The translations under genes were made by a program, and so were the position numbers. 64,000 bases of DNA from a phage: the NCBI GenBank assembly GCA_025611195.1, contig GCA_025611195.1_4718.1. The stretch is one strand, 5' to 3'. Shown one piece after another: positions 4,275 to 59,357 of the stretch. Position 1 is the stretch's first letter. Each line of letters begins with the position of its first letter. The notes under the pieces were generated by a model. The model saw only the letters and a list, made by a program, of their open reading frames with translations, was not told where the DNA came from and made no database searches.

Positions 4275-6071
4275 TCAATCGATTATGTCACGATCGTTAA
4301 TTTCTACAATTTCTTCATCGAATCGACCGACGTCTTTCTTCAAGCCTGCATTTGTTGCTGCAACGTCATTTGCGATTTGTGGGGTAATGATTAACCGACC
4401 GCGTTCATCGATAGGTGCGTACATACTGAACTTCTGACGTCCGGTTGGTTCGGAGTGTGGAAGATTCAGATAGCTTGCGCAGAACGGGATGGAACCACTC
4501 ACCAAACGACTCTCGTCAGCCAACGCAGCACCGCCTGCATTTTGGCTCTGGAGAACAACATGCGTGCTCACTTTGAACAGCATGCAATCGCCCGGTGACT
4601 GAATCGATGTTGCCACTTTCTCACGCTTATCACGATTGCTCTGGATATTGAGAATCGCTTCCGTTGCAACTTGATTGCGCAACGCCTTCTGTACATCGCG
4701 ATTGGTCATCTCTTTACGGTTGTTCTGTCGTTTACCACGTTCCGTGGTTTTAAGATGGAACCCCAGTTTAAAGATGCTTTTACGCACATCCTCCATGACG
4801 TATTCCAACACCATCAATTCCTTACCGAACATCGTCGTGGTATCAACACGACTCATTTCGATAGTAACGTTGTCAATCAGATACGCCATAAATTCGTAGA
4901 AGTCGTCGCAAGGAATATTTTCCTGTTTGAACTTCTTCTGTTGAATTTCATCAACGTAAAGATCGAGACTGTCGATGTGGTGGTTTACATCACGCAACAA
5001 ACGCGCATCCGCATTGTTGTTATTAAAGATAATCAAACCGAGTAATGTACGCCAATGGTCTGGCGCATTAGCGAACTCTTCAACCGGATAGTCTTCCGGG
5101 AAACGATCGTAATAACGGTCGATGAGATATAAGAACGCGCCGACAAGGCCAAGAACAATACGTTCCGTACCTCCACGTCTTACAGCGATTTGAATATCGG
5201 GATGTTTATAACGTACAGCGTTAGCGCTACGGCTTTTACCGCTTTTGCTGATACTAAAGCCTTTAGGAATAACCCCCATGGTGCGATAGATTACCCATTG
5301 GTCGCGCGGAAAATCGCGTTCAGCAAGATTCCGTCCGGTGACGGCTTCGACGCCAGCAAAACGTCGGAAACATTCACCCACCCCATACTTCGCAAAGAGA
5401 TAGTGACCCAGTGTGGTTACGCTGGTGTGGTTGATGTTGTCACCGTTCACTTTACTTTGTTTGGTAAGATGATAGATTTGCGACCAGGGTAACGACAGGT
5501 AATGACGATAATCGATACCCGTTGGTGTATCATTGCTCAGGAACTGATACGGTGTACGTTTAACCGTGATTTTGTCACGCGGAAGCATGATGAACGCCAT
5601 GTCTTTCGTGTAACTGATTACAGGGTCAGCGAGCACTGCACTGAGAATGAAGTTCGCACCACGTAGACGCATTTTACCACCCTGACCTACCGCGGGCAAT
5701 AGGAGAGGATGTCGGATAATGCAGTAGTCCTTTCCTGGTTCGCGGCGGTCACCTGATTCCATCGCACCATACCAGCGGAATTCTAGCATCACCATAAACA
5801 CGTCGGAAGGTGCAAGGTCGAAGGTCAGCTTACCGCTATCCTTCCCTTTGGTTTTCTTTCCTCCGCTTAAGTAGTGGAACTGTTCGCGGGCCATACAACG
5901 ACGCAGGCCATGATACACCAGATCCTTAGGTAAACTATCTTTGCTGTTCCGCCAAAGACGATCAACATAGGACTCAACATCTTGCATCTTATCGACGACG
6001 ATGTTGCGTGCTATCTTCTCGTTCATCTTCGGTGCAAGCTCAGCGACAGCTTTGCAGAATCTAGGATCCAT
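4275..6071 (-). CDS. hypothetical protein (598 aa)
   Basis: long ORF tightly packed in minus-strand gene string; no motif recognised. Confidence 0.7.
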   Translation of the reverse strand: MDPRFCKAVAELAPKMNEKIARNIVVDKMQDVESYVDRLWRNSKDSLPKDLVYHGLRRCMAREQFHYLSGGKKTKGKDSGKLTFDLAPSDVFMVMLEFRWYGAMESGDRREPGKDYCIIRHPLLLPAVGQGGKMRLRGANFILSAVLADPVISYTKDMAFIMLPRDKITVKRTPYQFLSNDTPTGIDYRHYLSLPWSQIYHLTKQSKVNGDNINHTSVTTLGHYLFAKYGVGECFRRFAGVEAVTGRNLAERDFPRDQWVIYRTMGVIPKGFSISKSGKSRSANAVRYKHPDIQIAVRRGGTERIVLGLVGAFLYLIDRYYDRFPEDYPVEEFANAPDHWRTLLGLIIFNNNNADARLLRDVNHHIDSLDLYVDEIQQKKFKQENIPCDDFYEFMAYLIDNVTIEMSRVDTTTMFGKELMVLEYVMEDVRKSIFKLGFHLKTTERGKRQNNRKEMTNRDVQKALRNQVATEAILNIQSNRDKREKVATSIQSPGDCMLFKVSTHVVLQSQNAGGAALADESRLVSGSIPFCASYLNLPHSEPTGRQKFSMYAPIDERGRLIITPQIANDVAATNAGLKKDVGRFDEEIVEINDRDIID

Positions 6072-13978: not shown

Positions 13979-14049
13979 TTTACCTTTCTATGTTAGGTGG
14001 ATTGCGGATAGAAGAATCAATGCATAAACTAATTTAAGTTTGTTAAGGT

Positions 14050-14952
14050 TTACTTAGCCTTTGAGTTATGCGGACTAACATGCTGTTGTACTCGTTGGAT
14101 TGTATCGTAGTACGGGTTAGATTGGTTGAACATGTTGTTGTGTGGGGGATAGCCATATGGCGCATTTTGCCTTGTTGGTGAGAAACCTTGTTGAGAAGGA
14201 CGGTTTGAATTAACCGCGAGTACGTAGTAAACCAAATTTTGACGGTCGAATGTTCCTTCGTTTTTGAAAGTGTCGGCGTAGGCTTTTACCGCTGGAGTGA
14301 GCCTATCACCATCGGCTGTAATAATTGTACCGTCTGGGTAAACTTCCCGAACGACGCACCATGTTCCGATGAGAACATCTTTAGGTGCTGTATTACCATA
14401 TCCGGTTGTAACGGTAAGGTAAGTATCGAACCCTTCAGAACAACAAGGATGACGATAGATGGGTCCTGTCATTTCCGTTCTATCGGTATCGCTACATTGT
14501 TCTATTGAGAGCGATGATGTGTCGGTTTTGAAATTGTCAAATTCTTTCTTTAAGTCGATTACGGGTTCTTTCGTATAGTACTTCTTGATTGCTTTGACGT
14601 AAAGATCAGGAACGGTTGTCAGCAATCCGTTATACCTGATTCTCAGGTTTTCGAGTAATCCAAAGATGCTCGCGCATGCCTGTTCGCGAGGTTTTGTAAG
14701 ATAAGAGATCCCCTCAGGAACGCTGGGATCTTTGAGAAAGAAGATTGCGTTATTGTCGTTGTGCGATGCGTTGAAGAAAACGATTGATTCGATATATACG
14801 GAGCATAGGCTGTCATTGGCGTCGTCAGATAACACCCAGATGCACTCATCGGTCGTCTTGTTTAAAAGTTCTGTTTTGTCGACCAAACGTTGTTTCATTG
14901 CGAGGAAATGTGCCTGTTGTTCAGCAGTTAATTCACGATAAATAGTGGTCAT
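14050..14952 (-). CDS. hypothetical protein (~300 aa), paralog of 15038-15811
   Basis: start at ATG 14952 with AAGGAG SD; C-terminal block HPCCSEGFDTYLTVTTGYGNTAPKDVLIGTWCVVREVYPDGTIITADG matches HPECHTTYDRYLTITGGVAAPSPVDIGEWRMIREIYPDGRIVTFCG in the neighbour. Confidence 0.65.
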   Translation of the reverse strand: MTTIYRELTAEQQAHFLAMKQRLVDKTELLNKTTDECIWVLSDDANDSLCSVYIESIVFFNASHNDNNAIFFLKDPSVPEGISYLTKPREQACASIFGLLENLRIRYNGLLTTVPDLYVKAIKKYYTKEPVIDLKKEFDNFKTDTSSLSIEQCSDTDRTEMTGPIYRHPCCSEGFDTYLTVTTGYGNTAPKDVLIGTWCVVREVYPDGTIITADGDRLTPAVKAYADTFKNEGTFDRQNLVYYVLAVNSNRPSQQGFSPTRQNAPYGYPPHNNMFNQSNPYYDTIQRVQQHVSPHNSKAK

Positions 14953-15037
14953 GTTGGGCTCCTTGATTACGATAAGGATGATTGCGGTTTTGTGGGTTTG
15001 GTAGGGCCCTAAACAAAGGAACCCTACCAATATTAGG

Positions 15038-15811
15038 TTAATCAGGATCGGCGTAGAAATGGTGAGGATAGCCGGAGTACGATCCTGCGTTACCGGCTAT
15101 GGATTCTTTCTGGGAATCGACGACGAGCGCATAGAACTGTCGGGAATTTGTTAGCGTTGAGAAATAAGCGGAAAGGACTTTTTCATTCAATGCATCACAA
15201 GGTAGGCAGGTGCGACCGCAAAACGTCACGATACGGCCGTCAGGATAGATCTCACGAATCATTCTCCACTCACCGATATCCACTGGTGATGGCGCTGCTA
15301 CACCACCTGTTATCGTTAAGTAACGATCGTACGTGGTATGGCATTCAGGATGAATATAGATCGGCTTGTTCGTTTCGACAGGTTCCGAAGTATCTCGACG
15401 ACTAAGAAGCTCAACGACTTCAAGATAAATCGTTGGTAGATCGCGGAGAATACCGGTGCTACGACGTTTCTTTGTGATTCGCGGACGAATCTCGTTGAGA
15501 GCGTATTCGAGCTTACGTTCAGCTTCGTACGCATCGAGTTTTATCAAGCGACCCGGTTCATCGGAATGATCCTGAGTTACGTAAACGAAATACGTGTCGC
15601 CTTTTGCAGCGTGAAAGATTCGAGCGACCTTAAATGTTTCTACGGTACGATAACCAAGGCGCGATTGATTTTCCACAGGAGAAAATATCCAATGCCGTCC
15701 TTCGTCAGCCTCAACAATTTCGTTGAAACTATCTGTCTGTTCTGGGACCTGGTAGTCAGCCAGTAATGTGTCGAGAGCATCATCAGCCAGTTTGATGTAA
15801 ATATCTGTCAT
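15038..15811 (-). CDS. hypothetical protein (257 aa), paralog of 14050-14952
   Basis: shared C-terminal domain with adjacent gene; preceded by promoter-like motif. Confidence 0.65.
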   Translation of the reverse strand: MTDIYIKLADDALDTLLADYQVPEQTDSFNEIVEADEGRHWIFSPVENQSRLGYRTVETFKVARIFHAAKGDTYFVYVTQDHSDEPGRLIKLDAYEAERKLEYALNEIRPRITKKRRSTGILRDLPTIYLEVVELLSRRDTSEPVETNKPIYIHPECHTTYDRYLTITGGVAAPSPVDIGEWRMIREIYPDGRIVTFCGRTCLPCDALNEKVLSAYFSTLTNSRQFYALVVDSQKESIAGNAGSYSGYPHHFYADPD

Positions 15812-44311: not shown

Positions 44312-45631
44312 TTAGGCGACAATAGAGTCAAGTGTTGCTGCCGTTTTAAACAGATCGTTGTTGATAACCGTAGACAGTGTTTTCTGAACCTGCTCCTGCT
44401 TCACGGCTTGCTGAACATCAGAACGCAACGCGATGGTAATGAGCTCCATAACGGTACGATTATCGTTGACCGTTTTCAAGATCTTGTCGATTTCTTTTAT
44501 CGCGTCTAGTGTCGAAACGCGGATATCCTGAGGTAAATCACGATCTTTAAGACGTCCAACCAACTCTTGTTTTAATTTCGCAACACGATCCTTGTCGCTG
44601 GTGTACGTGGAATAGGTAAAGTCGTATAGTGTTATTGTTTTCAGGTTGACGAAAAGAGCTACCGTACTCATTGTACCCAGGATTGGGTTAATTAACGATA
44701 AACCAACGATTGCGCCAATAACGGACAATGAACATACAGCATATTGCGTCCAAATACTATTGCGATCCCTTACTGATATTTTTCCGAGACGTTTGTAAAT
44801 TTTTGCTAGCGCGTCTGCCATTGCAGCTCCGCCGCCATGACGGGTGACGAATTGATCGGCGACAAATTCCGCTGAAGTATCGGAATAGCGACCCATGTGC
44901 GTTGCGACACGTGTCTGCTCTTCTTTATTGCTTATATACACGGTGTACCAGGTGGCAACATCGCTTGATTCCGCAATGACGTTGACGTCAACCGTTGTAC
45001 CCATCGCATCGTTTAATGATTTCGCGAGCGTGATCTTTTTCTCTTTATCTGTTGTTTGTAGTAATTCGCGTGCGGCGGTTGCGAGAGAAAAATCCGTCTT
45101 AGCGGATTCGGCGATAAATTCCAGGAAAGTAAAAGCGTGCCCAACTTCGTGCAATACAAACGCTGCTTTGTTTTCCGGAGTGAATTCCGTATCACGAATA
45201 AATCCGTCGGTTACAAATACGCGGATAACGATTTTCTCGAACGCACCTTTCACCCTACCATTGACAAGATCGACCACACCGACGATTTCATCGATATTCT
45301 TACTTAACTGTTTAAAATCTCTGTTTCGATAGAACTGTTTACGCCATTCTTCAATAAGCACATTGTTTTTTGTAATGTCTGGAGTAATACAGGAACAGTT
45401 AATTTCACTCATGTTCGGTATTACTTCTGTCTGGATGGTCAACCCAGTGTGTTTGCGTATTAAATCGGATAGTGGCTTACCACTGATATATTTTACCTTT
45501 TCTTCATAGCTGGTAAGATTATCCATTGTTTTGAATAACTCGGTCATTTCCTTGAACAAGGAACCATCTTGAAACTTGATGGCCTCCATCGTTAATTCGT
45601 CATGACCATACACGCGTTGTAGTAATGACAT
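44312..45631 (-). CDS. hypothetical protein (439 aa) with HExxH zinc-metallopeptidase-like motif and C-terminal hydrophobic segments
   Basis: AFVLHEVGHAF motif; later hydrophobic stretch VIGAIVGLSLINPILGTMSTVALFV. Confidence 0.65.
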   Translation of the reverse strand: MSLLQRVYGHDELTMEAIKFQDGSLFKEMTELFKTMDNLTSYEEKVKYISGKPLSDLIRKHTGLTIQTEVIPNMSEINCSCITPDITKNNVLIEEWRKQFYRNRDFKQLSKNIDEIVGVVDLVNGRVKGAFEKIVIRVFVTDGFIRDTEFTPENKAAFVLHEVGHAFTFLEFIAESAKTDFSLATAARELLQTTDKEKKITLAKSLNDAMGTTVDVNVIAESSDVATWYTVYISNKEEQTRVATHMGRYSDTSAEFVADQFVTRHGGGAAMADALAKIYKRLGKISVRDRNSIWTQYAVCSLSVIGAIVGLSLINPILGTMSTVALFVNLKTITLYDFTYSTYTSDKDRVAKLKQELVGRLKDRDLPQDIRVSTLDAIKEIDKILKTVNDNRTVMELITIALRSDVQQAVKQEQVQKTLSTVINNDLFKTAATLDSIVA

Positions 45632-45852: not shown

Positions 45853-47604
45853 ATGAGCGAACAAGAACGAAAACCTAAGAAGAAACTGCTCGGTATTCAA
45901 TGTCGACACATCAGCTATAACGAAGCGAACGATGGTAGTAAGAACGACCTCATGATCGCAAAAGAGATCATGTTCTTCGATGATAATACGCAAGCGACGA
46001 ACCTTCGCTTCTTCGAGAATTACAAACGTCCGTTTTGGGTGACGGTAGAGAGTAAACGCAAGAACAAATATAAAAAGGAAAGCGAGAAGCTCTCGCACGT
46101 GCGACGCTACGATGTCCGTCAAAGTGAGCTGGTTGAAAAGATCAGCTCGGTGCTTTATAAAAGACGTGCTGACGATAACACCCGTTTACAGCAGCTTGCA
46201 CGGAGTCCCTACCTCTATGGCACGGACGTTAGCGCCAGCTGTTATTTAAAAACCCAATACAATACAAAATGGCCGGAATACGTCGATAAATTACCCGCGT
46301 CTATCGCATGTTTCGATATCGAAACCGATGTTGTCCACGGACACGGTAAGATCGTCTGTATGTCTATTACAATGGGATACAATGCGATCCTTTGCTATAC
46401 CAAGGACTTCGTTGGTCATATTCCGAATGCGATTGAGAAAACCCATGAGAAGATTCGATATTACCTGGCCGAACGTCTGAACACCAAAGAAGATCCTCAT
46501 GCGTTCGAAAAATATCAGTACGATGTTCGAATCGTAGAAAGCCCAGCACAAGCGGTCATCCAATGCATGCAGAAGGTTCACGAATGGCAGCCGGATTATC
46601 TCCTTGGCTGGAATATCGCGTTCGATATTCCGCGTATGCTCCAGGCACTGAACGAGGAAGGGTATCGTCCCGAGGATGTTTTCTCCGATCCTCGTGTACC
46701 ACCTAAGTATCGTATTGCTCGCTGGGTACCACCGAAGACCGACAAGGTATCTGCTTCAGGTCGTAAAACCAACCTTACCCTTGAGCAAACCTGGCCGATG
46801 TTTTATACGATGGCCACGTATCAGGTTATGGATGCGATGTGTGGTTATAAGTTCGTTCGTTTAGGAAGACCGGATGAGGGGAGATACTCACTCGATGCGG
46901 TGTTAGAGCGAAATAAATGTCATACGAAATTAAAAGCAATTCCTGGTACAGAGGGGTTCACGGAGCTTGCGTGGCACGAAGAGATGCAAACGAACCATCA
47001 AATCGACTACGGCGTATATAACCTTTGGGATAACCAGGGTATCGAGGCGTTGGACCAGAAAACAAAAGACTATTCGATGACCATCCCTATTCGTTTGGCA
47101 GCATCGGATTTGAAAGATTTCAGTTCTAACCCTAAACGTATCTGCGATAAACTTTTCTTCGTTTATCTTAACCGTGGGGAAGTCATGGGATGCACCGCCG
47201 ACGACATGACCCAGGAAGAAGATAAGTGGGTTATCTCACGAACCGGACATATCGTCACATTGCCATGCGATCTCATGGCGGACAACGGCATCCATCTCTT
47301 CTGGGATATGCCGAACCTGAGAAGTTATATCCGTCTATTCGTTGCAGACCTCGACATTAGCAGTTCATACCCGAATGGGCAGATCCTGTTGAATCTATCC
47401 AGAGCATGTGTTTTTCGTGAGCTCTCACGCATTGAAGGCGTCTCTGACTATCAGTTCAGGAAGTTAGGTATCAACTTTATTACCGGAGGTAAAACGAACG
47501 CTGTAGACTTCTGTAGAATCGTTTATAAAGCACCATCGATGTTCGAACTCTTAGAACATTTCGATGCAACGCGTCCAAAAGGGGAAGCGCGGACCATCGA
47601 ATGA
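45853..47604 (+). CDS. family B DNA polymerase, N-terminal fragment (3'-5' exonuclease domain plus polymerase motif A); polymerase appears split
   Basis: Exo I CFDIETDV, Exo II LLGWNIAFDIPRM, Exo III YNLWD, motif A ADLDISSSYPNG; no motif B/C before the stop. Confidence 0.7.
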   Translation: MSEQERKPKKKLLGIQCRHISYNEANDGSKNDLMIAKEIMFFDDNTQATNLRFFENYKRPFWVTVESKRKNKYKKESEKLSHVRRYDVRQSELVEKISSVLYKRRADDNTRLQQLARSPYLYGTDVSASCYLKTQYNTKWPEYVDKLPASIACFDIETDVVHGHGKIVCMSITMGYNAILCYTKDFVGHIPNAIEKTHEKIRYYLAERLNTKEDPHAFEKYQYDVRIVESPAQAVIQCMQKVHEWQPDYLLGWNIAFDIPRMLQALNEEGYRPEDVFSDPRVPPKYRIARWVPPKTDKVSASGRKTNLTLEQTWPMFYTMATYQVMDAMCGYKFVRLGRPDEGRYSLDAVLERNKCHTKLKAIPGTEGFTELAWHEEMQTNHQIDYGVYNLWDNQGIEALDQKTKDYSMTIPIRLAASDLKDFSSNPKRICDKLFFVYLNRGEVMGCTADDMTQEEDKWVISRTGHIVTLPCDLMADNGIHLFWDMPNLRSYIRLFVADLDISSSYPNGQILLNLSRACVFRELSRIEGVSDYQFRKLGINFITGGKTNAVDFCRIVYKAPSMFELLEHFDATRPKGEARTIE

Positions 47605-47684: not shown

Positions 47685-47701
47685 GGAAGTTTTATGTGTT
47701 T

Positions 47702-48151
47702 TTAATTATTGTTGATGGGGTTATCGTCCGGCTTATATTCGATGCCGTAGGCGACGTAACGGTCTGTCGTATGGACGACAAGCGAGATGGGGAAATCATA
47801 ATGCGTGGTTTTGTCTCGGACGAGCTGAGTAAAGAGATCCATATAACGTATTAAGTCTTCACTGGTGTAATCAGAAGGGAAGAAGACGTCGATGGTTATT
47901 GAATCTTCATAGAGGCGTATAACCAACTTATCCAGAAGGTCGGCATATTGGTTAGCCGGGGTGACGTCCAGCTCACAGATATCACGATCTCCTTCGTCTC
48001 GTGATACCCACATCATGGTATCCTGTAATGAGGTTTCAAGGATCTCGAAAATGCATTTTGCTGTAAGTTTTAGTTTATTTGTTACGTCATGGTTAGGTGA
48101 ATAATGGTCACGGATGTTTTTCACTGCGTCTTTGATAGAGAAAGTCATCAT
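47702..48151 (-). CDS. small paralog array member P1 (149 aa)
   Basis: AAGGAG SD; C-terminal YDFPISLVV...EYKPDDN motif shared with P6-P9. Confidence 0.65.
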   Translation of the reverse strand: MMTFSIKDAVKNIRDHYSPNHDVTNKLKLTAKCIFEILETSLQDTMMWVSRDEGDRDICELDVTPANQYADLLDKLVIRLYEDSITIDVFFPSDYTSEDLIRYMDLFTQLVRDKTTHYDFPISLVVHTTDRYVAYGIEYKPDDNPINNN

Positions 48152-48161
48152 TGATGCTCCT

Positions 48162-48671
48162 TCAAATGAAATTAATACGTGCGGCTGTCGAAACGAGTTC
48201 GCTTGTAAAGCAATGCTTACCGTCGGTGTTTACCGTGTATGTAAGTTTACAAACCTTAGCGGCAGGGTTAGCACCGATAACAAGGACGGTCGTCATATCG
48301 AACAGTTCCACACGTTGAAGAAATGCCGTATCGGCTACCTTCTGTAAACCGGTTGCTTCAAAATCGATGTGGTCGTTAAGAGGCACCAATTGGATTTCAA
48401 TGCGTTCTTTGAAAAGTTTAAACGTTACTGAAAACCGATGAGGTTCGGTATTAAGCCATAAAGGTCCACGTTGGAAGTGCTGATATGCTTCATTCGCGGT
48501 GTTCTCGAAAACCCAGCAGTCGTGGACAAGAGAAGCCTCTTGTAACGATGATTCCAGGTAGTCAAATACCTTGTTTATCGTTTTCTCAAGCATAGGCGCT
48601 AGTGAACCAGGGTATCCGGCAAATGCTGCTTCGGCAATCGATTTTATTGATACGATGTTGTTCTGACTCAT
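48162..48671 (-). CDS. small paralog array member P2 (~169 aa)
   Basis: start moved to ATG 48671 with AAGGAA SD; same size class and context. Confidence 0.55.
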   Translation of the reverse strand: MSQNNIVSIKSIAEAAFAGYPGSLAPMLEKTINKVFDYLESSLQEASLVHDCWVFENTANEAYQHFQRGPLWLNTEPHRFSVTFKLFKERIEIQLVPLNDHIDFEATGLQKVADTAFLQRVELFDMTTVLVIGANPAAKVCKLTYTVNTDGKHCFTSELVSTAARINFI

Positions 48672-48675
48672 TTCT

Positions 48676-49128
48676 TTATTCCTTGTTGGCTTCTTCAATG
48701 TGCTTGGTGTCGTAAGACAAATGCTGAATTAATTTTCTAGGTTCGATGAAAATACGACATGTGATAAACACATCAGGGTTGTATTGTTCCACGCAACGTC
48801 CGAAGGCTCGTTTTGCGGACTGACGCATCAATGTTAATTCCTGATCGTTCATCTCATCATCAAATTCGATGTGTATCGTGATTTTATCGGGAAATAAATA
48901 GATAGAGTAGTCGCTACCGATATCACCGTCGTCAAAACGATAATCGTTGTGGTAATGGTGGAGTTTACCTTCGTGTATCGTCTGGTACCACCCAACGATA
49001 CTATCAAGACCCATACCCAGGCGTCCGAATGCTTGAGTAATAACATCCTCAACGACGGATGCGGGCGTGGGACCATTGAATAGACGATCTAAGCGCTTTT
49101 TCATTGATTTGTCGGTTTTCATGTTCAT
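48676..49128 (-). CDS. small paralog array member P3 (~150 aa)
   Basis: start moved to ATG 49128 with AGGAAA SD; AFGRCVEQYNPDVFITCRIFIEP resembles family C-terminal motif. Confidence 0.55.
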   Translation of the reverse strand: MNMKTDKSMKKRLDRLFNGPTPASVVEDVITQAFGRLGMGLDSIVGWYQTIHEGKLHHYHNDYRFDDGDIGSDYSIYLFPDKITIHIEFDDEMNDQELTLMRQSAKRAFGRCVEQYNPDVFITCRIFIEPRKLIQHLSYDTKHIEEANKE

Positions 49129-49158
49129 TGTTTCTTTTCCTGTGTAGTCGGTATACAA

Positions 49159-49190
49159 CCCTTCCCCGGCCTGATGGCTAGGGAAGGGGC
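49159..49190 (-). terminator. hairpin CCCTTCCCC-loop-GGGAAGGGG inside the small-paralog array
   Basis: inverted repeat between P4 and P3. Confidence 0.45.
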
Positions 49191-49202
49191 TATGCTACGT
49201 TG

Positions 49203-49601
49203 TTATGCTTCGCAATCAGCTGAAGACGTCGCGCCTTTCTTACCAGCGATACGCCAAATCCGACACGCTGGATAATGGTTAACCTCTAGAGAGCAAGGAA
49301 TGTTATATTTCTCTTCCAGCGCATAAAGACATTTCGTTAGCTGCTCCAGCGCGTTCTCGTCGTGTCGTAACGCGTGGTGGCCTAATCGATGTTGGTCGTT
49401 CTTTATATACGCCTCGAAGAGAACATGTTGGCGATGTACGCTGACGTTTACAGCCTCGAGTATAGCTTGGTCGAGCATACGACTAAAGCACATCAACGAG
49501 TCAGATACGTTTTCTCGCTTAACCAGATCGATCATGGCGGGAATATACGAATGGTCGATGTTATCGATGACCGCTTTAGCGACGGAATCAGCAACGTTCA
49601 T
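49203..49601 (-). CDS. small paralog array member P4 (~132 aa)
   Basis: start at ATG 49601; N-terminus MNVADSVAKAVIDNIDH and C-terminus LEEKYNIPCSLEVNHYPA near-identical to P5. Confidence 0.65.
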   Translation of the reverse strand: MNVADSVAKAVIDNIDHSYIPAMIDLVKRENVSDSLMCFSRMLDQAILEAVNVSVHRQHVLFEAYIKNDQHRLGHHALRHDENALEQLTKCLYALEEKYNIPCSLEVNHYPACRIWRIAGKKGATSSADCEA

Positions 49602-49637
49602 CTTTTTAATCCCTAGTTTGTTATTGATCACGTATAT

Positions 49638-50033
49638 TTACTCTTTGACGTCAGTTGTCGTTTCGACATGCTTCTCACTACTGACGTACCAGAGCAGGTA
49701 CGCTGGGAAAAGATTGACCTCTAAGCTAAATGGGATATTGTATTTCTCTTCCATTTTACAGAGATGTTCTTTAATTAAATTTCTCGCGTCTCTGTCACCA
49801 CGAACAGAGTGCCAGTCTAGTTCTTTGTTCTCCTTTACCAGGACCTCTACGATGATACGTTGCTCGTGAACCTCGGTTTTCACAGTGAAAAGTAAATCGC
49901 TGCTATCAAAACGGGTAAAACGAATGTATGAACCAGGTGTTTTTTCTTGTTTAATAATATCGATCATGGTAGAAATGCGCGGATGATCGATGTTGTCGTT
50001 AACAGCTTTAACGATGGATTCTACAATGCTCAT
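49638..50033 (-). CDS. small paralog array member P5 (131 aa)
   Basis: MSIVESIVKAVNDNIDH...MEEKYNIPFSLEVNLFPA; tandem duplicate of P4. Confidence 0.65.
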   Translation of the reverse strand: MSIVESIVKAVNDNIDHPRISTMIDIIKQEKTPGSYIRFTRFDSSDLLFTVKTEVHEQRIIVEVLVKENKELDWHSVRGDRDARNLIKEHLCKMEEKYNIPFSLEVNLFPAYLLWYVSSEKHVETTTDVKE

Positions 50034-50065
50034 TTTTTATCCTTAATGTTATCGATTTGGAAATA

Positions 50066-50833
50066 TTACTTATTTTTGCTTTCTTTATAGACAGTTGTTA
50101 CCCACGATGGGAAAGCCGGATGGAAACAGAGCGTGAACGTAACTGTCGTATCGTATTTAAACGCGCAGTTCACTAACCGGGTATCGAACGTTTTCCTTAG
50201 ACCATCATCATCGTTATCGATGACAGCCATATCTCTTAATATCCCAAGCACGTTAACGCCGTCGAGTGTCTGGGTTACGACAAGTCGTCGTAATGGCCCG
50301 CATGTATAGTCACGTACAAATCCTTTCTTCGGGTCCGATACCCTGTTTAACGCATCGTGATTTTTGATGAATTCATCGGCGATACAATAGGTTTGTTCCC
50401 TTGCTTTATCGGGATCGTATTCTGCTAATAGTTCCTTCGTGTCGAACGTTATCATGTTATTATCATTCGATTCAGAAGGGAAACATAAAACTAAACGAAC
50501 AGGGTATTCGTATTGATCTGTTCTTGTTTCGAAAGCATTAGCTAGACACGGCTTGTATGCCTTTGCGTCGACATTGTCCAAACATGGATGCAATAATGCA
50601 TGAATAACGGCACCATCGTCAGTTAAACCGAATTCCAGAAATTGTACTTTATCAGTATCCGCTACGGTTTTCTGAAGATACGCTTTACCGTTTACGATAT
50701 CGGTATCCCACATATCGTCGTTTAACGATTCTTCAAACTTATCGAATATATGGTTTACGAGATTGACGAGTTCATCAATACGGCACTGTTGGTTGAATTC
50801 GATTAATCGCTGAACTTTATCTTTGATAGACAT
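50066..50833 (-). CDS. small paralog array member P6 (255 aa, possibly a two-domain fusion)
   Basis: contains AFETRTDQYEYPVRLVLCFPSE motif mid-protein and second related half. Confidence 0.6.
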   Translation of the reverse strand: MSIKDKVQRLIEFNQQCRIDELVNLVNHIFDKFEESLNDDMWDTDIVNGKAYLQKTVADTDKVQFLEFGLTDDGAVIHALLHPCLDNVDAKAYKPCLANAFETRTDQYEYPVRLVLCFPSESNDNNMITFDTKELLAEYDPDKAREQTYCIADEFIKNHDALNRVSDPKKGFVRDYTCGPLRRLVVTQTLDGVNVLGILRDMAVIDNDDDGLRKTFDTRLVNCAFKYDTTVTFTLCFHPAFPSWVTTVYKESKNK

Positions 50834-50835
50834 GA

Positions 50836-51294
50836 TTACCCCTTAGTTTCTTCTTCGTCTGGAGAGTACTCCATTGTGTAGAATTCATAACCATCGGAAA
50901 ACTTGAGTGTTAATGTAATAGGGAAATCGCACGGCATAGCTGATTTCGTAAACGCGTTATTAGCAACATCAGCCAACCGACGTATAGCATCAGTCCCGCT
51001 GACGCTGAACGGTAGTTGTATGTTGATAAGGATGCGGTGCTTGTAAACATGGAAAACAACGGTACTGTCAAGATAAACGCTATGGAACGGTATTGTTGGG
51101 ATGCGTTCCACGATGGTAAAATACGTCCCGTCATTATCGCTATGTCCCATCGACCAAATATCGGATTTGCGTAGATTTTGTTTGAGGGATTCGATACTTC
51201 GAGTGACGGTATCAACAACAGGCGTGACGTAAGTGTCTTTATGCGAGTCGAAAAGTTCGTTGACGTTAGATTCGAATGAATACATTGTTGCCAT
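50836..51294 (-). CDS. small paralog array member P7 (152 aa)
   Basis: C-terminus AFTKSAMPCDFPITLTLKFSDGYEFYTMEYSPDEE; start overlaps P8 stop (TAATG). Confidence 0.65.
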   Translation of the reverse strand: MATMYSFESNVNELFDSHKDTYVTPVVDTVTRSIESLKQNLRKSDIWSMGHSDNDGTYFTIVERIPTIPFHSVYLDSTVVFHVYKHRILINIQLPFSVSGTDAIRRLADVANNAFTKSAMPCDFPITLTLKFSDGYEFYTMEYSPDEEETKG

Positions 51295-51773
51295 TATTCT
51301 ACCTCTTTCTTCATCTTCATCGGAACAGAGAGTGCTGTTATCTCTGTTCCATTATCCGGTTCATACTCCAATGTAACGAGATTGCAGCCATCCGATAATT
51401 CATAATCGATCGCTAGGGGGAACGAGACACCGTGCGACTTTATGCATTTACCAAATGTCTCGTTGGCTGTATACATTAGAAGTTGCTTTGCGGCAAGCCC
51501 GTTTACGCTGAAAGGTAATCGTGCTGTCGCAGCGATACGATTATTGTAAACTCTGATATCGGTGATATCTACAATCGTAGCATTGCCGTGTTGTGTCGTT
51601 GGAACGGATAGGCTGTAGAAGTAAGGTTCGGAGTCGGAATCGGGCTCGTTAAATAATTCCCAGCACCCGTCCTCCTGCAATCTTACTTCGAGTATTTCAA
51701 AGCTTTTAATTATCGATTCTACCAGCTGCTCACCGTAAGAATCCCATGTCGTCATTTTTAACACCTTCGACAC
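51294..51773 (-). CDS. small paralog array member P8 (159 aa)
   Basis: C-terminus TFGKCIKSHGVSFPLAIDYELSDGCNLVTLEYEPDNG. Confidence 0.65.
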   Translation of the reverse strand: MSKVLKMTTWDSYGEQLVESIIKSFEILEVRLQEDGCWELFNEPDSDSEPYFYSLSVPTTQHGNATIVDITDIRVYNNRIAATARLPFSVNGLAAKQLLMYTANETFGKCIKSHGVSFPLAIDYELSDGCNLVTLEYEPDNGTEITALSVPMKMKKEVE

Positions 51774-51825
51774 CTTTTAACCGATGCGTGCCCCACCTAA
51801 CAAGGGACACGATATCGTTGATTAA

Positions 51826-52326
51826 TTACTCTTCTGTGTTTTCATTGTCAGGATCGTAATGGAATTCGAACAGCCCTGAACCGTCATGTCCGTTGATTGT
51901 TAGTATAACGGGCATATCGAATCCTCGGACGCGCGAATGAAAACACTGTGCTAATTTTAGTTTGGCGTATGCCGCTATTTCATTGACGGCAATACACGAC
52001 TCACCTGTTATACTCAGTATAACGTCGATACTAACAACGTTGTCGTGCAACGCAAAACGCCAGCGATCGATACGATTATTATCTTTAGCAGCTGTCTCGT
52101 TTACGAGATAGACTTTATCGTCAACTGACAAAGCAGGGCTCCAGCAACGTTCGTTTATTAAATTCGCCTGGAGTTTTAGTATCGTCTGATCAATAATATC
52201 CCAACACGCAACCAGTGTGGTGTCGGGCACTGAACAGAGAAGGGCGAGCACTTTATCCTTTATTTTAAGTGCTTCCACAGAGCGTCCGCAAATACCATGC
52301 ATTTCAACCTTCTTATTCATATTCAC
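51826..52326 (-). CDS. small paralog array member P9 (166 aa)
   Basis: C-terminus LAQCFHSRVRGFDMPVILTINGHDGSGLFEFHYDPDNE. Confidence 0.65.
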   Translation of the reverse strand: MNMNKKVEMHGICGRSVEALKIKDKVLALLCSVPDTTLVACWDIIDQTILKLQANLINERCWSPALSVDDKVYLVNETAAKDNNRIDRWRFALHDNVVSIDVILSITGESCIAVNEIAAYAKLKLAQCFHSRVRGFDMPVILTINGHDGSGLFEFHYDPDNENTEE

Positions 52327-54280: not shown

Positions 54281-54919
54281 TTATGCAAAGCGACGCATGT
54301 AACCTGCCAGATAGTTACGCGTATCGAAGTAGGCGATTTCAGGAATTGCGATATTAAGGTCGATAGCGCGGATTTCAACTTGGCGACGGCTTTCATCATA
54401 GATCGCATCCATCAGACGCAGTACTGTCAGGAAAGCCATGCGGGTATGGTAGTCCAGCGGCATGTTATCGATACCGCGATACAGATAACGGTTTGCGTTA
54501 AACGCCCCTTCACTGTTATCTTTCCAGATCTTCAGAATATCAGCAAAAGCGGCGCGGAAAACCTCAGGATTATCCACATCCAGTAACGCACGGAAGGCAG
54601 ACATCAAAGATCGCTGATGACGGATCAAGGACTGCGGCGTTTGCGGCATGGTCGGACCCATTTCTTCCGCATATTTCTGGAACGGGGCGACCAGGGTTGC
54701 GGCACGAGAAGCAACGATAGAAACAGCAGGCGATTCTTTCACCGCTGGTTTCGCAGGCTTTTCTTCAACGGTGGTTTCCTTCTTCTCAACAGCAACCGTT
54801 TCCGGTTGTGCTACAACGTTGTTGGTCGGAGCAGCAGTCGCACCATTTTCCACGGCGGTCTCTACTGCTGTAATCTTTTCTTCCATTTGTGCGGAACGTT
54901 GGTCTTTATTCTTGCTCAT
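54281..54919 (-). CDS. hypothetical protein (212 aa)
   Basis: ORF downstream of RNAP fragment gene. Confidence 0.6.
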   Translation of the reverse strand: MSKNKDQRSAQMEEKITAVETAVENGATAAPTNNVVAQPETVAVEKKETTVEEKPAKPAVKESPAVSIVASRAATLVAPFQKYAEEMGPTMPQTPQSLIRHQRSLMSAFRALLDVDNPEVFRAAFADILKIWKDNSEGAFNANRYLYRGIDNMPLDYHTRMAFLTVLRLMDAIYDESRRQVEIRAIDLNIAIPEIAYFDTRNYLAGYMRRFA

Positions 54920-54944: not shown

Positions 54945-56246
54945 TTAACTAATATAAAGTTCAGGATCGTAAGGCGCTAATGATACACTGGCGTTATGCA
55001 TTGCTTTCATCATAGTGTTCATGAAAACGTTGTTTACACCGGTGATCTCTGCCCCGATCGCGTCTGGGGTTGGAGCCATCGCGTTACCGCAACAGGTAGC
55101 ACAGTATTCCAATGGACCTGCTTTACAGCGCTGAGGATCGCGTAACTTGATGGTTTGTCCTTCCAAGGAAGCGAGTAATTCAGCATCAATAAGTTTAAGC
55201 GCTGCGCCGTCGATCATGTAACGGCCGACAAGTAGCTTATCTTTGATGTGGTCGCGGTTTACCGTGAACAGAATATGTTCTTGGGTGCCGCAGTCGTCCA
55301 TCGTGATTTTAAGGTTCTGTGTTGCGCGTTGTGATTCTTTAGCCGTTTGTCCAGCTAAAGCGGTCAACGCACCACGTGAGAACGAACCAGCACGTGCACT
55401 GTTGTTGTACTCCGCCCAATGGTCGACACGCATCCCTTCAGCCAGGCTGTGTGTGATAACGTTACGTTTACCAGGGTCAACGAAGTCAGCCTCAACCCCC
55501 ATCATGATGTGCGTTTTCTTTCGAGTATTACCGAAACTCTTGCCAGGGTTAATATAGAACCCTTCCGATTCATCGCCCTTAAAGGATTCCTTATCCATTT
55601 TGGTTAGCGTGGCTTCGAGTTTGATCAGTTCTTCAGGCGTGAACTTACCTTCCTCTTGCAAACGCGCTAACTCTTTATCACGATAGGCAATAATATCATC
55701 GTCGACCGTTAACGCTTTATCGCTCATCGATGGCACAATCAAACGGTTGATAGCGGTTAATGCGCTGATATTGTTGGTGAATTTCTTCACTTCGCTTGCG
55801 TATAGCGGGCCAATCGGACGTTCGTTAGGATCGGGTATTCCCTCTTCAGGGTCGTCTGCTACGCGTGGCGCAATCAGTGATTCTAGTGTACCGCTGGTCA
55901 ACCGTCCTGCCTGATATTCAATCTGAATACCGAAAGCATCATAAAGGACGTACATATTGAACAACGCTTCACCGAAGGTTGTGGCGGTTGTGTTCTTAAC
56001 CGACGGTAGATCACCAGGTGCAAGCTCCAACGGCTCCCAGAAATTCAACAAGGGTTTTGTTGGTTCTGTTTCCCATTGGTGTTCTTCACCGTCGATGGTA
56101 ACCGTAACGATGTTACCTTGACGACGTAATTTAGGCTGATACTTCTCAGCACCGCCTTCCGTAAAAGCAAATGCGTCGTTAATCCATTCAAGATAACGGT
56201 AGTGCCCTTCACGCAACGCGTAAAGGAAATAATCACGAGGTGTCAT
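54945..56246 (-). CDS. multisubunit RNA polymerase beta-prime-like fragment (bridge helix to start of trigger loop), 433 aa
   Basis: ARAGSFSRGALTALAGQTAKESQRATQNL resembles bridge helix ([22 protein letters not shown]); LRDPQRCKAGPLEYCATCCGNAMA...DAIGAEITGVNNVFMNTMMKAMH resembles LRSPxTC...CxxCYGxDLA...[24 protein letters not shown] of bacterial RpoC (recalled from memory). Confidence 0.65.
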   Translation of the reverse strand: MTPRDYFLYALREGHYRYLEWINDAFAFTEGGAEKYQPKLRRQGNIVTVTIDGEEHQWETEPTKPLLNFWEPLELAPGDLPSVKNTTATTFGEALFNMYVLYDAFGIQIEYQAGRLTSGTLESLIAPRVADDPEEGIPDPNERPIGPLYASEVKKFTNNISALTAINRLIVPSMSDKALTVDDDIIAYRDKELARLQEEGKFTPEELIKLEATLTKMDKESFKGDESEGFYINPGKSFGNTRKKTHIMMGVEADFVDPGKRNVITHSLAEGMRVDHWAEYNNSARAGSFSRGALTALAGQTAKESQRATQNLKITMDDCGTQEHILFTVNRDHIKDKLLVGRYMIDGAALKLIDAELLASLEGQTIKLRDPQRCKAGPLEYCATCCGNAMAPTPDAIGAEITGVNNVFMNTMMKAMHNASVSLAPYDPELYIS

Positions 56247-56259
56247 GTAACAACTCCTT

Positions 56260-57138
56260 TTAAACGTGGGTCAGGTCACCGTGACGTGAAACGAACTCTG
56301 ATAACGCTCGGGTTGCTTCTTTGGATTCTTCAACCATCGGGAAGTTTGTGGTAACAAGTTCTCGTAGGACAGGAATGATTTCATTATCTTCGAGATCGGA
56401 AGCTAACGCGAATGCGATCAGTTCTTGGGCGTACGCATACGGCTGCTGACGTAATGCGGCAAGCTGATTCCGACACTGCGACATTAGCAGGTCCAGTGGA
56501 ACCGCTATTGTACCCCCTTCATCAATATACTGACCGAATACCGGTGGGAACGCATCGCTGATTACACGAATTCGTCGACGGATGCGATCAGGAATCTGGA
56601 CGTTTTCTTCGTCGGCGATATTTTCGCTGTCTTTCTCCAGCTTCTTGGTTAACACCTGCTGGATACGTGGGAGCAAGCTTGAATGCACGAAACTGATTAA
56701 TGATGCTACGTCCACAGCATCGACACCGTAAATATAACGCGTGCATTCCGCTAGCGTTTCAGCTGCGGTGTAGTCTTCATCTTCAACGATGGCGAGTAGA
56801 AAAGCGGTATCGTCGTGTGTTTCCAGGTCTAATAACGTAGACGTCAACGCATGAAGATATTTCAGGCTATCCAAAGATAGTTGCCCTTCGTTAACTCGGA
56901 TCCCGAAGGCAAGCAGTTGTTGTTTATAAAGTTCGATACATCCGTTTGTTAAAATGATATCGAGTTCGTTTAAATCGTATTGTTCCCCAGCACCTGACAA
57001 CATCGTACTACAAAACGTTTCCAGTTGCTCGCATTTAAAATCTTGGTATAAACGATGCATGCAGTGCTGTAACAGCGTACGCCTTGTTTCAGGGATCTTA
57101 CCTTCTAACAAAGCCAAGACGGAATCAATCATATCCAC
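56260..57138 (-). CDS. hypothetical protein (292 aa)
   Basis: ORF directly upstream (in transcript sense) of RNAP fragment gene. Confidence 0.65.
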   Translation of the reverse strand: MDMIDSVLALLEGKIPETRRTLLQHCMHRLYQDFKCEQLETFCSTMLSGAGEQYDLNELDIILTNGCIELYKQQLLAFGIRVNEGQLSLDSLKYLHALTSTLLDLETHDDTAFLLAIVEDEDYTAAETLAECTRYIYGVDAVDVASLISFVHSSLLPRIQQVLTKKLEKDSENIADEENVQIPDRIRRRIRVISDAFPPVFGQYIDEGGTIAVPLDLLMSQCRNQLAALRQQPYAYAQELIAFALASDLEDNEIIPVLRELVTTNFPMVEESKEATRALSEFVSRHGDLTHV

Positions 57139-57228: not shown

Positions 57229-57702
57229 ATGCCAGTTTCATCCAAACCAAGAAAAAAATCAGTAGGAAAACCTAAAGCTCAGGAAACAACAGCGATTCGT
57301 TGGGACGAGTTACGTGAACCTATCGAAAACTGCGAATTGTTATTAGGCACCCTGGGTGCGGCTATTTACCAGGCAACACAACCTTGCCGTTTACGATTAA
57401 CCCAAAACAAGCGTGATGAGTTCGTTGCGTTATCAACAAGCACGAATAAAGATCTGACCGAACTTCAAACCGAGTTGACGACGATCAAGAACTCCATTAC
57501 GCCGATGTATGGTAAAGAAGTCGACGAACAAAGTATTCTGTTACAGTACAACTACGGGATGTCGTTAATGAACATCCTGGAACGCGCATCCGATATTCTG
57601 CGTCCTGACGTTGCACGCCTGAGCCAACTGCGTGTTGAAGGGATGGAGAACCAGATTCGATTCGCCAACAGTGTTAAATCTCAAGGAGCCACCGAAGCAT
57701 GA
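57229..57702 (+). CDS. hypothetical protein (157 aa)
   Basis: ORF, 4-nt overlap with following gene. Confidence 0.6.
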   Translation: MPVSSKPRKKSVGKPKAQETTAIRWDELREPIENCELLLGTLGAAIYQATQPCRLRLTQNKRDEFVALSTSTNKDLTELQTELTTIKNSITPMYGKEVDEQSILLQYNYGMSLMNILERASDILRPDVARLSQLRVEGMENQIRFANSVKSQGATEA

Positions 57703-59357
57703 GCGAACAAGAAAAAGATGTCGTGACGAATCAGGAAGCCACCGAGCGTTCAGAGTCGTCCGTTGAAACTACGATCCCAGCAAGTGAGGGTAAAGACGAA
57801 GCCGTCGCTACCGAAGGAGAGGTAGCGGCTCCAGAAGCAACCCGTGAAGAAGAACCATCACATCCACCGCTGGTTGATTTCTCGAAGGCGACGATACGTT
57901 TCCAATGCGAAGACATTCGTCCTAAGAGTCCGAAGAAAACAAAACGTCAGCCGTTGGTGTTACCGCTGTATTCTCCGCGTGTACAGACAGCGTATTACAA
58001 GGAATACATCAACGAAGCAATGGATACCGTGCAAGCCATTGTCGCTCAACGCGGTAAGCCTTCGGACGAGCAATTTGATAAATTCAGTAAAGCGGTAGTG
58101 CAATCGGTTGCTGATGGGCAATACCAACCGCGCGGGCCAGCTCATGATCGTGCGTTGGAGCGTAAGGGCAGTCAGTGGACTAACGTACCCGTAGACTCAT
58201 CGGGCGTTGGTCGTGTTATTCCTGGCATCCCACAACCGAACCATATTCCTGATGATGTCGAAGCGCCGCTGACAGGAACCGACGCAATCTATTTTGCAAT
58301 CCGCAATACGAAATCGGGCGCACCTGCGGTAATGCCGTTATGGCATAGCGGTATTAAGCTGCAGTTCAATCCACCGTCAAATGAACGTGTCGCAATTATG
58401 CATGAACGTATTGCACGCGATAAAATCCTGGGTGGGCGTGATAGTACCGGTTTCCTGTTTTCGGCAACCTCGATTATCACCATGAAGCACGCAATCGAAT
58501 TAGCATTAGAATGCTGTTACATGGCCAACGTACCGAACCTGGATATCCAGCGTTTGAAAGACATTATCCCGGTTACCGATGTTCCGGCACTGTTGTTGAA
58601 CGTGCTGGTAACCATGTACCCGTACGGGTATCCTTACGTGCAGACCTGCTATCAGAATCCAGAAACCTGCGACTATCGTGTTGAAGATACCGTAAGCTTT
58701 GCGAAGCTCTATCAAGTTGACAACAGCGCAATTACCAAACGTATGCGACAGATCATGACCGAAGGTCCGGTCATGACCGATGAACTTTTGCGTGAGTATG
58801 CGAACGAGCTGGGCGAAACAAACTCCCGTACGCTGGATCTGTCTGACAACGGTTCGGTTATCATTGAGCTTGAAGTACCGAAGATTTCACGTCAGATCGC
58901 CATGGGCGAACGCTGGTTAAGCGATACACTGGAAGATCTGCGTGATATTCTATCGCGTCCGTCAATGACCGAAGAAGAGCGTGATCGTGTTATTCGTGAG
59001 CGTCAGTTCTATAGCTGGATGCGTCAGTATGATGCGTGGATCAAATCGATGCATGTGTCGGTAAACGGTACCATGCGTCGTGTAAGCGATGCAGATACGG
59101 CAACGGTATTAGCACAGCTGTCTCGTGACAGCGACCTTCGTGAACGCTATATCGATGGGCTGATGCAGTTCATCGGTGATTCGACGATTGCGCTCGCAGC
59201 GATGCCTGCCTGGAAATGTCCGAAATGTAATACCGATATTGCTGACAATCTGCGTGACCAGAAATACTACGATCTGATTGCTTTGGATGTACCCCAGCTT
59301 TTTTTTACCCTAAACTCCGTCCAATCTCTTCAGGAGGGGATGGACGCGGTATTCTAA
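57699..59357 (+). CDS. hypothetical protein (552 aa); 3' end contains U-UUU-UUU slippery heptamer and may be extended by -1 frameshift
   Basis: long ORF; T8 run at 59299-59306 in X-XXY-YYZ register; -1 frame open from the run into 59420-59779. Confidence 0.7.
   Translation: MSEQEKDVVTNQEATERSESSVETTIPASEGKDEAVATEGEVAAPEATREEEPSHPPLVDFSKATIRFQCEDIRPKSPKKTKRQPLVLPLYSPRVQTAYYKEYINEAMDTVQAIVAQRGKPSDEQFDKFSKAVVQSVADGQYQPRGPAHDRALERKGSQWTNVPVDSSGVGRVIPGIPQPNHIPDDVEAPLTGTDAIYFAIRNTKSGAPAVMPLWHSGIKLQFNPPSNERVAIMHERIARDKILGGRDSTGFLFSATSIITMKHAIELALECCYMANVPNLDIQRLKDIIPVTDVPALLLNVLVTMYPYGYPYVQTCYQNPETCDYRVEDTVSFAKLYQVDNSAITKRMRQIMTEGPVMTDELLREYANELGETNSRTLDLSDNGSVIIELEVPKISRQIAMGERWLSDTLEDLRDILSRPSMTEEERDRVIRERQFYSWMRQYDAWIKSMHVSVNGTMRRVSDADTATVLAQLSRDSDLRERYIDGLMQFIGDSTIALAAMPAWKCPKCNTDIADNLRDQKYYDLIALDVPQLFFTLNSVQSLQEGMDAVF
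59299..59306 (+). other. homopolymeric T8 tract / candidate -1 programmed ribosomal frameshift or slippage site
   Basis: 0-frame codons CTT TTT TTT ACC; -1 frame has no stop until 59779. Confidence 0.4.

Follow-up and report, generated by a model that had tools for sequence, protein, structure and literature searches.

How can a polypeptide that breaks off within the trigger loop, a mobile catalytic element of the β′ subunit of multisubunit RNA polymerases (RNAPs), be part of a working enzyme, and of which enzyme? This question is raised by a 433-amino-acid (aa) open reading frame (ORF) that begins with ATG in the ORF listing and occupies, with its stop codon, positions 54945..56246 on the minus strand of a 64,000-nucleotide stretch of phage DNA (contig GCA_025611195.1_4718.1 of assembly GCA_025611195.1; this whole analysed stretch is referred to as the window). 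A preliminary description, based on the letters alone, had called the ORF a β′ fragment with a bridge-helix-like and a region-G-like segment, and the ORF with both segments is present as claimed. Our analysis shows that it almost certainly encodes Mid-β′, a subunit of the virion-packaged multisubunit RNAP (vRNAP) of a Goslar-like, nucleus-forming jumbo phage (Chimalliviridae).

The protein is matched end to end by PHROG 2962 ('RNA polymerase beta subunit'; E = 7.2e-106, positions 1-432/433). It is identical at 428 of 433 positions (98.8%) to gp078 (YP_009820763.1) of the Escherichia phage vB_EcoM_Goslar, annotated 'RNA polymerase beta subunit', with all five amino-acid differences confined to the first 88 residues. 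The two genes differ by 53 nucleotides, and because these amount to 48 synonymous and only 5 non-synonymous codon changes, the ORF is under strong purifying selection. More distant counterparts are phiKZ gp80, which shares 32% identity over 97% of the length and is annotated 'structural head protein', and AR9 g264, which carries the annotation of a virion RNAP subunit; reciprocal orthology holds for both. The ORF is the ortholog of Goslar gp078, phiKZ gp80, SPN3US gp42 and AR9 g264. Relatives were found by tblastn in 311 phage records, and an exhaustive HMMER search yielded 1,286 clusters at 50% identity, nearly all of 415-455 aa, whose members align to within a few residues of the C-terminus of the ORF protein. 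A Shine-Dalgarno sequence, AAGGAG (56254..56259, minus strand), can be read 7 nucleotides before the ATG and directly after the TAA of the upstream gene. Scans for sigma-70 promoters and intrinsic terminators around the gene gave no excess of sites over shuffled sequence, and such scans do not apply to promoters of phage RNAPs.

The surrounding DNA places the gene in a close relative of Goslar, itself a nucleus-forming jumbo phage (Chimalliviridae). Over 4 kb around the ORF, nucleotide identity to Goslar is 94.7%, and local blastn shows the window to be collinear along its full length with Goslar 35.5-97.1 kb at ~94-95% nucleotide identity, apart from a few indels. The window is thus a Goslar-like Chimalliviridae genome from a distinct Goslar relative.

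To establish the register of the protein on cellular β′, we built an alignment of 105-107 relatives, of which a 107-sequence profile was used for searching the PDB and 105 sequences for conservation. E. coli residues were taken from the actual MG1655 rpoC sequence, and the motifs were checked there. Using phmmer against PDB sequences, ORF residues 261-392 align with bacterial β′ ~743-901 and also with chain 7s00_D of the non-virion RNAP (nvRNAP) from AR9. The family profile retrieved β′ chains down to E = 4.4e-11, the AR9 nvRNAP β′C chain at 3.6e-9 and phiKZ gp74 at 1.2e-7. Alignment to MG1655 RpoC by hhalign equated query residues 245-417 with β′ 740-936 (probability 93%, E = 3.4e-7). The three approaches agree on the bridge-helix and region-G likeness to RpoC put forward in the preliminary description, and the matched residues do fall in the bridge helix and the trigger loop.

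Of the two segments, the one resembling a bridge helix, ARAGSFSRGALTALAGQTAKESQRATQNL (aa 284-312), pairs with E. coli β′ 779-807, and in the hhalign alignment the stretch beginning ARAGSFSRGALTALAGQ sits on the E. coli bridge helix. The predicted bridge helix itself comprises aa 274-309 (55320..55427, minus strand), a 36-residue helix in the AlphaFold2 (AF2) model that is aligned to E. coli β′ ~769-805, and its residues R285, G287, R291, T295, G299, K303 and R307 are invariant or nearly so in the family. Further downstream, β′ 883-936 is the counterpart of the stretch that runs from LRDPQRC to MKAMH. Residues invariant in all 105 relatives are G250, R291, T295, G299, C319, C374, C382, C385 and H417. 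The four cysteines among them (55092..55292, minus strand) occupy the columns of β′ C814, C888, C895 and C898 in both hhalign and hmmsearch alignments, which we take to be the Zn-II site. The first trigger helix corresponds to aa 397-417 (54996..55058, minus strand), likewise a helix in the AF2 model, in which M413-K414-A-M-H417 equals E. coli M932-R933-T-F-H936; next to the invariant H417, M413 is kept in 92 of the 105 relatives. Compared with bacterial RpoC (E. coli ~500-942), the bridge helix, the Zn-II Cys4 site and the region G Met and His thus occur in the same order and spacing at ~16-18% identity, whereas the ORF lacks the NADFDGD barrel on the N-terminal side and the second trigger helix, the jaw and region H on the C-terminal side.

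The AF2 model computed from the alignment (predicted local distance difference test, pLDDT, 92.5; predicted template modeling score 0.80) contains the helices 274-309 and 397-417, followed by a low-confidence tail. A Foldseek search of the PDB with this model returned bacterial β′ chains and the AR9 nvRNAP β′C chain (7s01_D) as top matches, with a probability of 1.00 and ~400 aligned columns. By this match the protein is β′-like over its whole length, beyond the two segments noticed initially. In terms of β′, the protein begins a short way past the catalytic double-psi β-barrel and extends to the trigger-loop tip; it contributes the bridge helix, the Zn-II Cys4 site and a first trigger helix bearing the Met and the His.

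Where exactly does the chain end? Beyond H417 only a C-terminal tail of aa 418-433 follows (54948..54995, minus strand), along which the pLDDT falls to 46-74. This tail is exactly 16 residues long in 99 of 105 relatives. The preliminary description had placed the stop inside the trigger loop, and this is borne out by the hhalign match reaching H936, by the tail and by the alignment to phiKZ gp74; a stop soon after the region-G-like segment was likewise correctly seen, but its distance is 16 residues from the trigger-loop His rather than about 20. In the hhalign comparison with gp74, query residues 313-433 correspond to gp74 282-397 (probability 90%), and the alignment stops at residue ~397 of 677, which is the C-terminus of the query. 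The trigger-loop insertion domain of gp74 comprises residues 396-533 (PMC7618050), and its equivalent in AR9 gp154 residues 400-508. Because the C-terminus aligns with gp74 ~397 and the insertion starts at 396, the polypeptide stops at the trigger-loop insertion point. The E. coli insertion SI3 occupies β′ 942-1129 and starts six residues after H936. The break would therefore lie at the same trigger-loop position as the insertion domains of the nvRNAP chains gp74 and gp154, and a few residues from SI3. Since the 16-residue tail is kept in 99 of 105 relatives and coincides with this insertion point, the protein is a complete, native and conserved subunit. The label 'fragment' consequently has to be dropped, as the ORF is full length for its family, whose 1,286 clusters nearly all fall within 415-455 aa.

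The assignment to a vRNAP builds on published work. The vRNAP core of jumbo phages consists of at least five polypeptides, N-β′, Mid-β′, C-β′, N-β and C-β, and lacks α and ω (PMC7598289). SPN3US gp42 (431 aa) was labeled β′M by Thomas et al. 2016 (PMC5105663). In the same work, T. thermophilus β′ ~1260-1524 was unaccounted for in the SPN3US vRNAP until the 240-aa virion protein gp244 (phiKZ gp176) was considered, an assignment made from weak hidden Markov model matches together with the co-loss of all vRNAP subunits from gp241 amber-mutant virions (PMC5105663). The proteins lost together with the vRNAP were gp37, gp42, gp158, gp218, gp240 and gp244 (PMC5105663). Both the end of our ORF before region H and its length of ~430 aa agree with this published gap. 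Moreover, phiKZ gp80 co-immunoprecipitates with gp180, gp178 and gp149 (PMC10612078). In Goslar, the vRNAP subunits gp78, gp196, gp205, gp207 and gp210 were all detected in virions by liquid chromatography-tandem mass spectrometry (bioRxiv 10.64898/2026.04.21.720040), with copy estimates for gp78 of ~14-33 per virion in the supplement of this preprint (10.64898/2026.04.21.720040). By analogy to Goslar gp78, phiKZ gp80 and SPN3US gp42, for which a virion location is published, the subunit studied here would be packaged as well. These orthologs also answer the question of a virion or a non-virion enzyme in favor of the virion, and they support the initial proposal of a split β′ as in phiKZ-type phages, since the genome is Goslar-like and phiKZ gp80, Goslar gp78 and AR9 g264 are all vRNAP subunits.

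Three other explanations of the ORF have to be weighed. It might be the C-terminal β′ subunit of the nvRNAP, i.e. of the phiKZ gp74 or AR9 gp154 type, an enzyme that transcribes the middle and late genes within the phage nucleus, to which it is indeed homologous over the bridge-helix to trigger-helix region and whose relatedness is also seen in a partial match to the 653-position RNAP profile phrog_3015 (E = 7e-11). The end-to-end match is however to phrog_2962 (E = 7e-106), and the reciprocal orthologs are the virion proteins phiKZ gp80 and AR9 g264. The β′C chains are 630-680 aa long and include the insertion and a C-terminal region, while the ORF protein stops where the insertion starts. 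As Goslar gp78 was in addition detected in virions and listed as vRNAP, we consider this explanation very improbable.

We regard it as just as improbable that the ORF encodes a structural protein of the capsid interior that has kept the β′-like fold through exaptation but takes no part in catalysis. The bare annotation of phiKZ gp80 as 'structural head protein' would fit such a role, and in the literature searched we found no activity of a purified jumbo-phage vRNAP. Against it, the invariant residues are precisely the functional ones of β′, namely the bridge-helix Arg, Thr and Gly, the Zn-II cysteines and the trigger-loop His, and the orthologs co-immunoprecipitate with other vRNAP subunits, with all subunits being co-dependent for packaging. 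Finally, a decaying pseudogene remnant of a longer β′ gene, as might be suspected from a chain ending amid a mobile catalytic element, a truncation that would disable a cellular rpoC, can practically be dismissed given an end point 16 aa past the invariant His in 99 of 105 relatives at ~30% identity, within a family of 1,286 clusters, a synonymous to non-synonymous ratio of 48:5 against Goslar, a strong Shine-Dalgarno sequence and an ortholog present in virions.

Several observations weigh against the Mid-β′ assignment nonetheless. A Pfam scan of the ORF and four neighbors revealed nothing relevant; for the ORF no family, and thus no RNA_pol_Rpb1 domain, appeared even at E <= 1, and the gathering thresholds of RNA_pol_Rpb1_4/5 are not reached, so that the link to β′ rests on profile and fold comparison. 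PDB searches and the searchable literature contained no solved vRNAP structure, so our view of the trigger loop within the assembled enzyme is inferred. No partner subunit is encoded within the 64-kb window, and the presence of the partners in this phage is deduced from Goslar. Lastly, C-β′ showed no significant link to β′ in our comparisons, and the partner assignment stands on published genetics and proteomics.

The search for partners covered the entire window. In agreement with the preliminary description, neither NADFDGD nor DFDGD or a near variant occurs in any of the six frames; the motif search returned only a low-complexity NADADAD inside a 1,127-aa ORF. PHROG scans of 20 large window ORFs identified no other RNAP family. 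The remaining RNAP pieces, which had been expected elsewhere in the genome, are hence absent from the window but can be located in Goslar as gp205 (phrog_2986), gp207 (phrog_3148), gp196 (phrog_3233) and gp210 (phrog_2926, 'virion structural protein'), 115-140 kb away from the Mid-β′ gene. One candidate for N-β′ within the window, a 598-aa 'polymerase' at 4275-6071 on the minus strand (phrog_2943, E = 7e-120; Goslar gp039), was rejected as it has no RNAP Asp-triad motif. A split B-family DNA polymerase has been described for this group of phages, and the 598-aa protein may be its second half. In Goslar, the genes gp207 (N-β) and gp205 (N-β′) have between them, at 211817-213710, an annotated group I intron RNA and the ORF179-like endonuclease gene gp206. 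This arrangement recalls a mobile intron reportedly described for PhiPA3.

The C-terminal piece of β′ is assigned to SPN3US gp244, phiKZ gp176 and Goslar gp210, and its family is present in 275 phage records. Neither phmmer nor hmmsearch gave a significant match of C-β′ in the PDB. The hhalign comparison with E. coli RpoC, using 13- and 102-sequence profiles, reached at best E = 0.3-0.7 at β′ 1242-1265 and 1103-1127, and that with phiKZ gp74 gave no significant match. An AF2 model of C-β′ (pLDDT 81.6) starts with a short helix, followed by a domain rich in β-structure (~14-101), and is helical in its C-terminal half; its top Foldseek match is an M. tuberculosis β′ chain over 232 columns, which at E = 0.09 is not significant. 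These results, though not significant, are compatible with an origin of C-β′ from the β′ C-terminal region or from a trigger-loop insert.

How does this architecture compare to known systems? Within the Mid-β′ family, Goslar gp078, phiKZ gp80, SPN3US gp42 and AR9 g264 have the same length, end point and conserved residues as the ORF. The nvRNAP β′C chains phiKZ gp74 (7ogp_D) and AR9 gp154 (7s00_D) contain a bridge helix, a Zn-II region and a first trigger helix homologous to those of the ORF. In nvRNAPs, β′C runs as one chain of 630-680 aa through the trigger-loop insertion and the C-terminal β′ region, whereas the ORF stops at the start of the gp74 insertion and the rest of β′ after Mid-β′ is encoded by a separate gene in vRNAPs. 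The largest subunit is likewise distributed over separate polypeptides that form one active site in cyanobacteria and plastids (γ/β′ or β′/β″) and in archaea (A′/A″). In archaea, the subunit is divided after the bridge helix and before the trigger loop, which leaves the latter whole in A″. The first β′ split of the jumbo phages falls downstream of the double-psi β-barrel, at the site of the cyanobacterial split, and both nvRNAP β′C and the ORF begin after it (PMC7598289). The second split, in the trigger loop, is not listed for the cyanobacterial/plastid or archaeal lineages in that study (PMC7598289).

Taking Goslar as a guide, Mid-β′ would assemble with four phage proteins, the counterparts of Goslar gp205 (N-β′ with the catalytic Asp triad), gp210 (C-β′), gp207 (N-β) and gp196 (C-β), into an enzyme without α or ω. 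This enzyme would be made late and packaged into the capsid at ~10-30 copies. Upon infection it would be injected with the DNA and transcribe early genes in the early-infection vesicle, independently of the host RNAP. Because the Mid-β′ chain ends 16 residues after the trigger-loop His, we further propose that the small C-β′ would supply in trans all that is missing, from the second half of the trigger loop onward. In our interpretation, the second split may sit at a hot spot of trigger-loop insertions.

The two genes flanking Mid-β′, which the preliminary description had suspected to be further divergent RNAP subunits, are encoded on the same strand. The downstream gene (54281..54919, minus strand) encodes a protein that matches PDB entry 11fg_A, 'Capsid Decorator gp77', over its full length (residues 1-212, E = 2.5e-134). 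Goslar gp77 is a decorator on the outer capsid surface with a solved structure (10.64898/2026.04.21.720040). A role of this neighbor as RNAP subunit is thereby refuted, and we also rejected it as an ortholog of phiKZ gp81, to which it has no similarity. Its residues 66-212 additionally match a 147-residue chain in 36za, 'Inner-peripheral baseplate spoke gp220' (E = 6e-94), which means that the protein was built into the baseplate model too or that the chain is labeled inconsistently.

The upstream gene (56260..57138, minus strand; likely true start at ATG 57132 as in Goslar) encodes a gp79-like virion protein. It shows 23% identity to phiKZ gp79 ('structural head protein') in BLASTP (E = 2e-8) and belongs to phrog_5038, a PHROG entry without assigned function. 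Its identification as an RNAP subunit remains unsupported: we detected no RNAP similarity in Pfam, PHROGs or the PDB, and Goslar gp079, although present in virions at a copy number similar to that of the vRNAP subunits, is not listed among the five (10.64898/2026.04.21.720040). A gene of 274-294 aa lies directly upstream of Mid-β′ in phiKZ, Salmonella phage JN03, Vibrio phage sm033 and Erwinia phage pEa_SNUABM_54, and overlaps the Mid-β′ gene in three of these four. PHROG matches (phrog_5038 / phrog_7807) confirm homology to the gp79-like family in phiKZ, JN03 and the Erwinia phage; no PHROG family was matched by the gene of the Vibrio phage. The SPN3US study does not mention the upstream neighbor of gp42 (PMC5105663). 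A role of the gp79-like protein linked to the vRNAP is possible, and we regard the conserved gene pair as a lead rather than as evidence of function.

Further upstream, a divergent pair on the plus strand (57229-57702 and 57699-59357) is syntenic with phiKZ gp78 and gp77. For the 552-aa protein of the second gene, the only one of the pair compared for homology, the identity to phiKZ gp77 is 24% (E = 5e-35), and a C-terminal W-x-CP-x-C motif is shared. Its Goslar ortholog gp081 is found in virions at ~15-35 copies. Both the gp79-like upstream gene and the divergent gp78/gp77-like pair are thus kept in synteny with the Mid-β′ family.

Elsewhere in the window, several segments depart from the collinearity with Goslar. 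The B-family exonuclease part of the DNA polymerase (phrog_3011) is a single 583-aa ORF at 45853-47604 on the plus strand. Its Goslar counterpart is annotated with 499 aa, and a 1.78-kb segment (Goslar 81185-82967) with the gene for the NUMOD1/HNH endonuclease gp069 comes after it. This segment is absent from the window, where the junction lies at 47348-47368; it resembles an insertion of a mobile intron or a homing endonuclease that Goslar has and this phage lacks. Conversely, a 1.78-kb segment at 14026-15807 stands in place of ~90 bp of Goslar (49567-49657) and is, relative to it, an insertion specific to this phage; two minus-strand ORFs are found there, 14050-15030 (326 aa) and 15038-15811 (257 aa). 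The block at 47696-51848 is variable and consists of small minus-strand ORFs that are partly matched in Goslar (~12 ORFs versus 7). The ORFs 50836-51294, 51294-51773 and 51826-52326 resemble paralogs with similar acidic '...EY.PD...' C-termini, and the block may be a diversifying multigene family. At 44578-45529, in the N-terminal two thirds of a gp067 homolog (44312-45631, phrog_2767), blastn gives no Goslar match of 200 bp or more, although the flanks are ~94-96% identical; here the gene of a putative virion protein has either diverged or been exchanged locally.

Taken together, the subunit, its orthologs and the three-way split of β′ (published 2016-2020) as well as its presence in Goslar virions are already known, and our finding adds one more near-identical allele from a Goslar relative, with no new biology beyond that. 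The increment lies in the placement of the second split 16 residues after the trigger-loop His, near-invariant and coincident with the insertion start in the nvRNAP paralog phiKZ gp74; in the searchable literature we found no statement in words that this split lies in the trigger loop. Such a precise split point could guide construct design and interpretation for a future vRNAP structure. The vRNAP lets nucleus-forming jumbo phages begin transcription in the early-infection vesicle without the host polymerase, and its subunits are therefore central to their life cycle.

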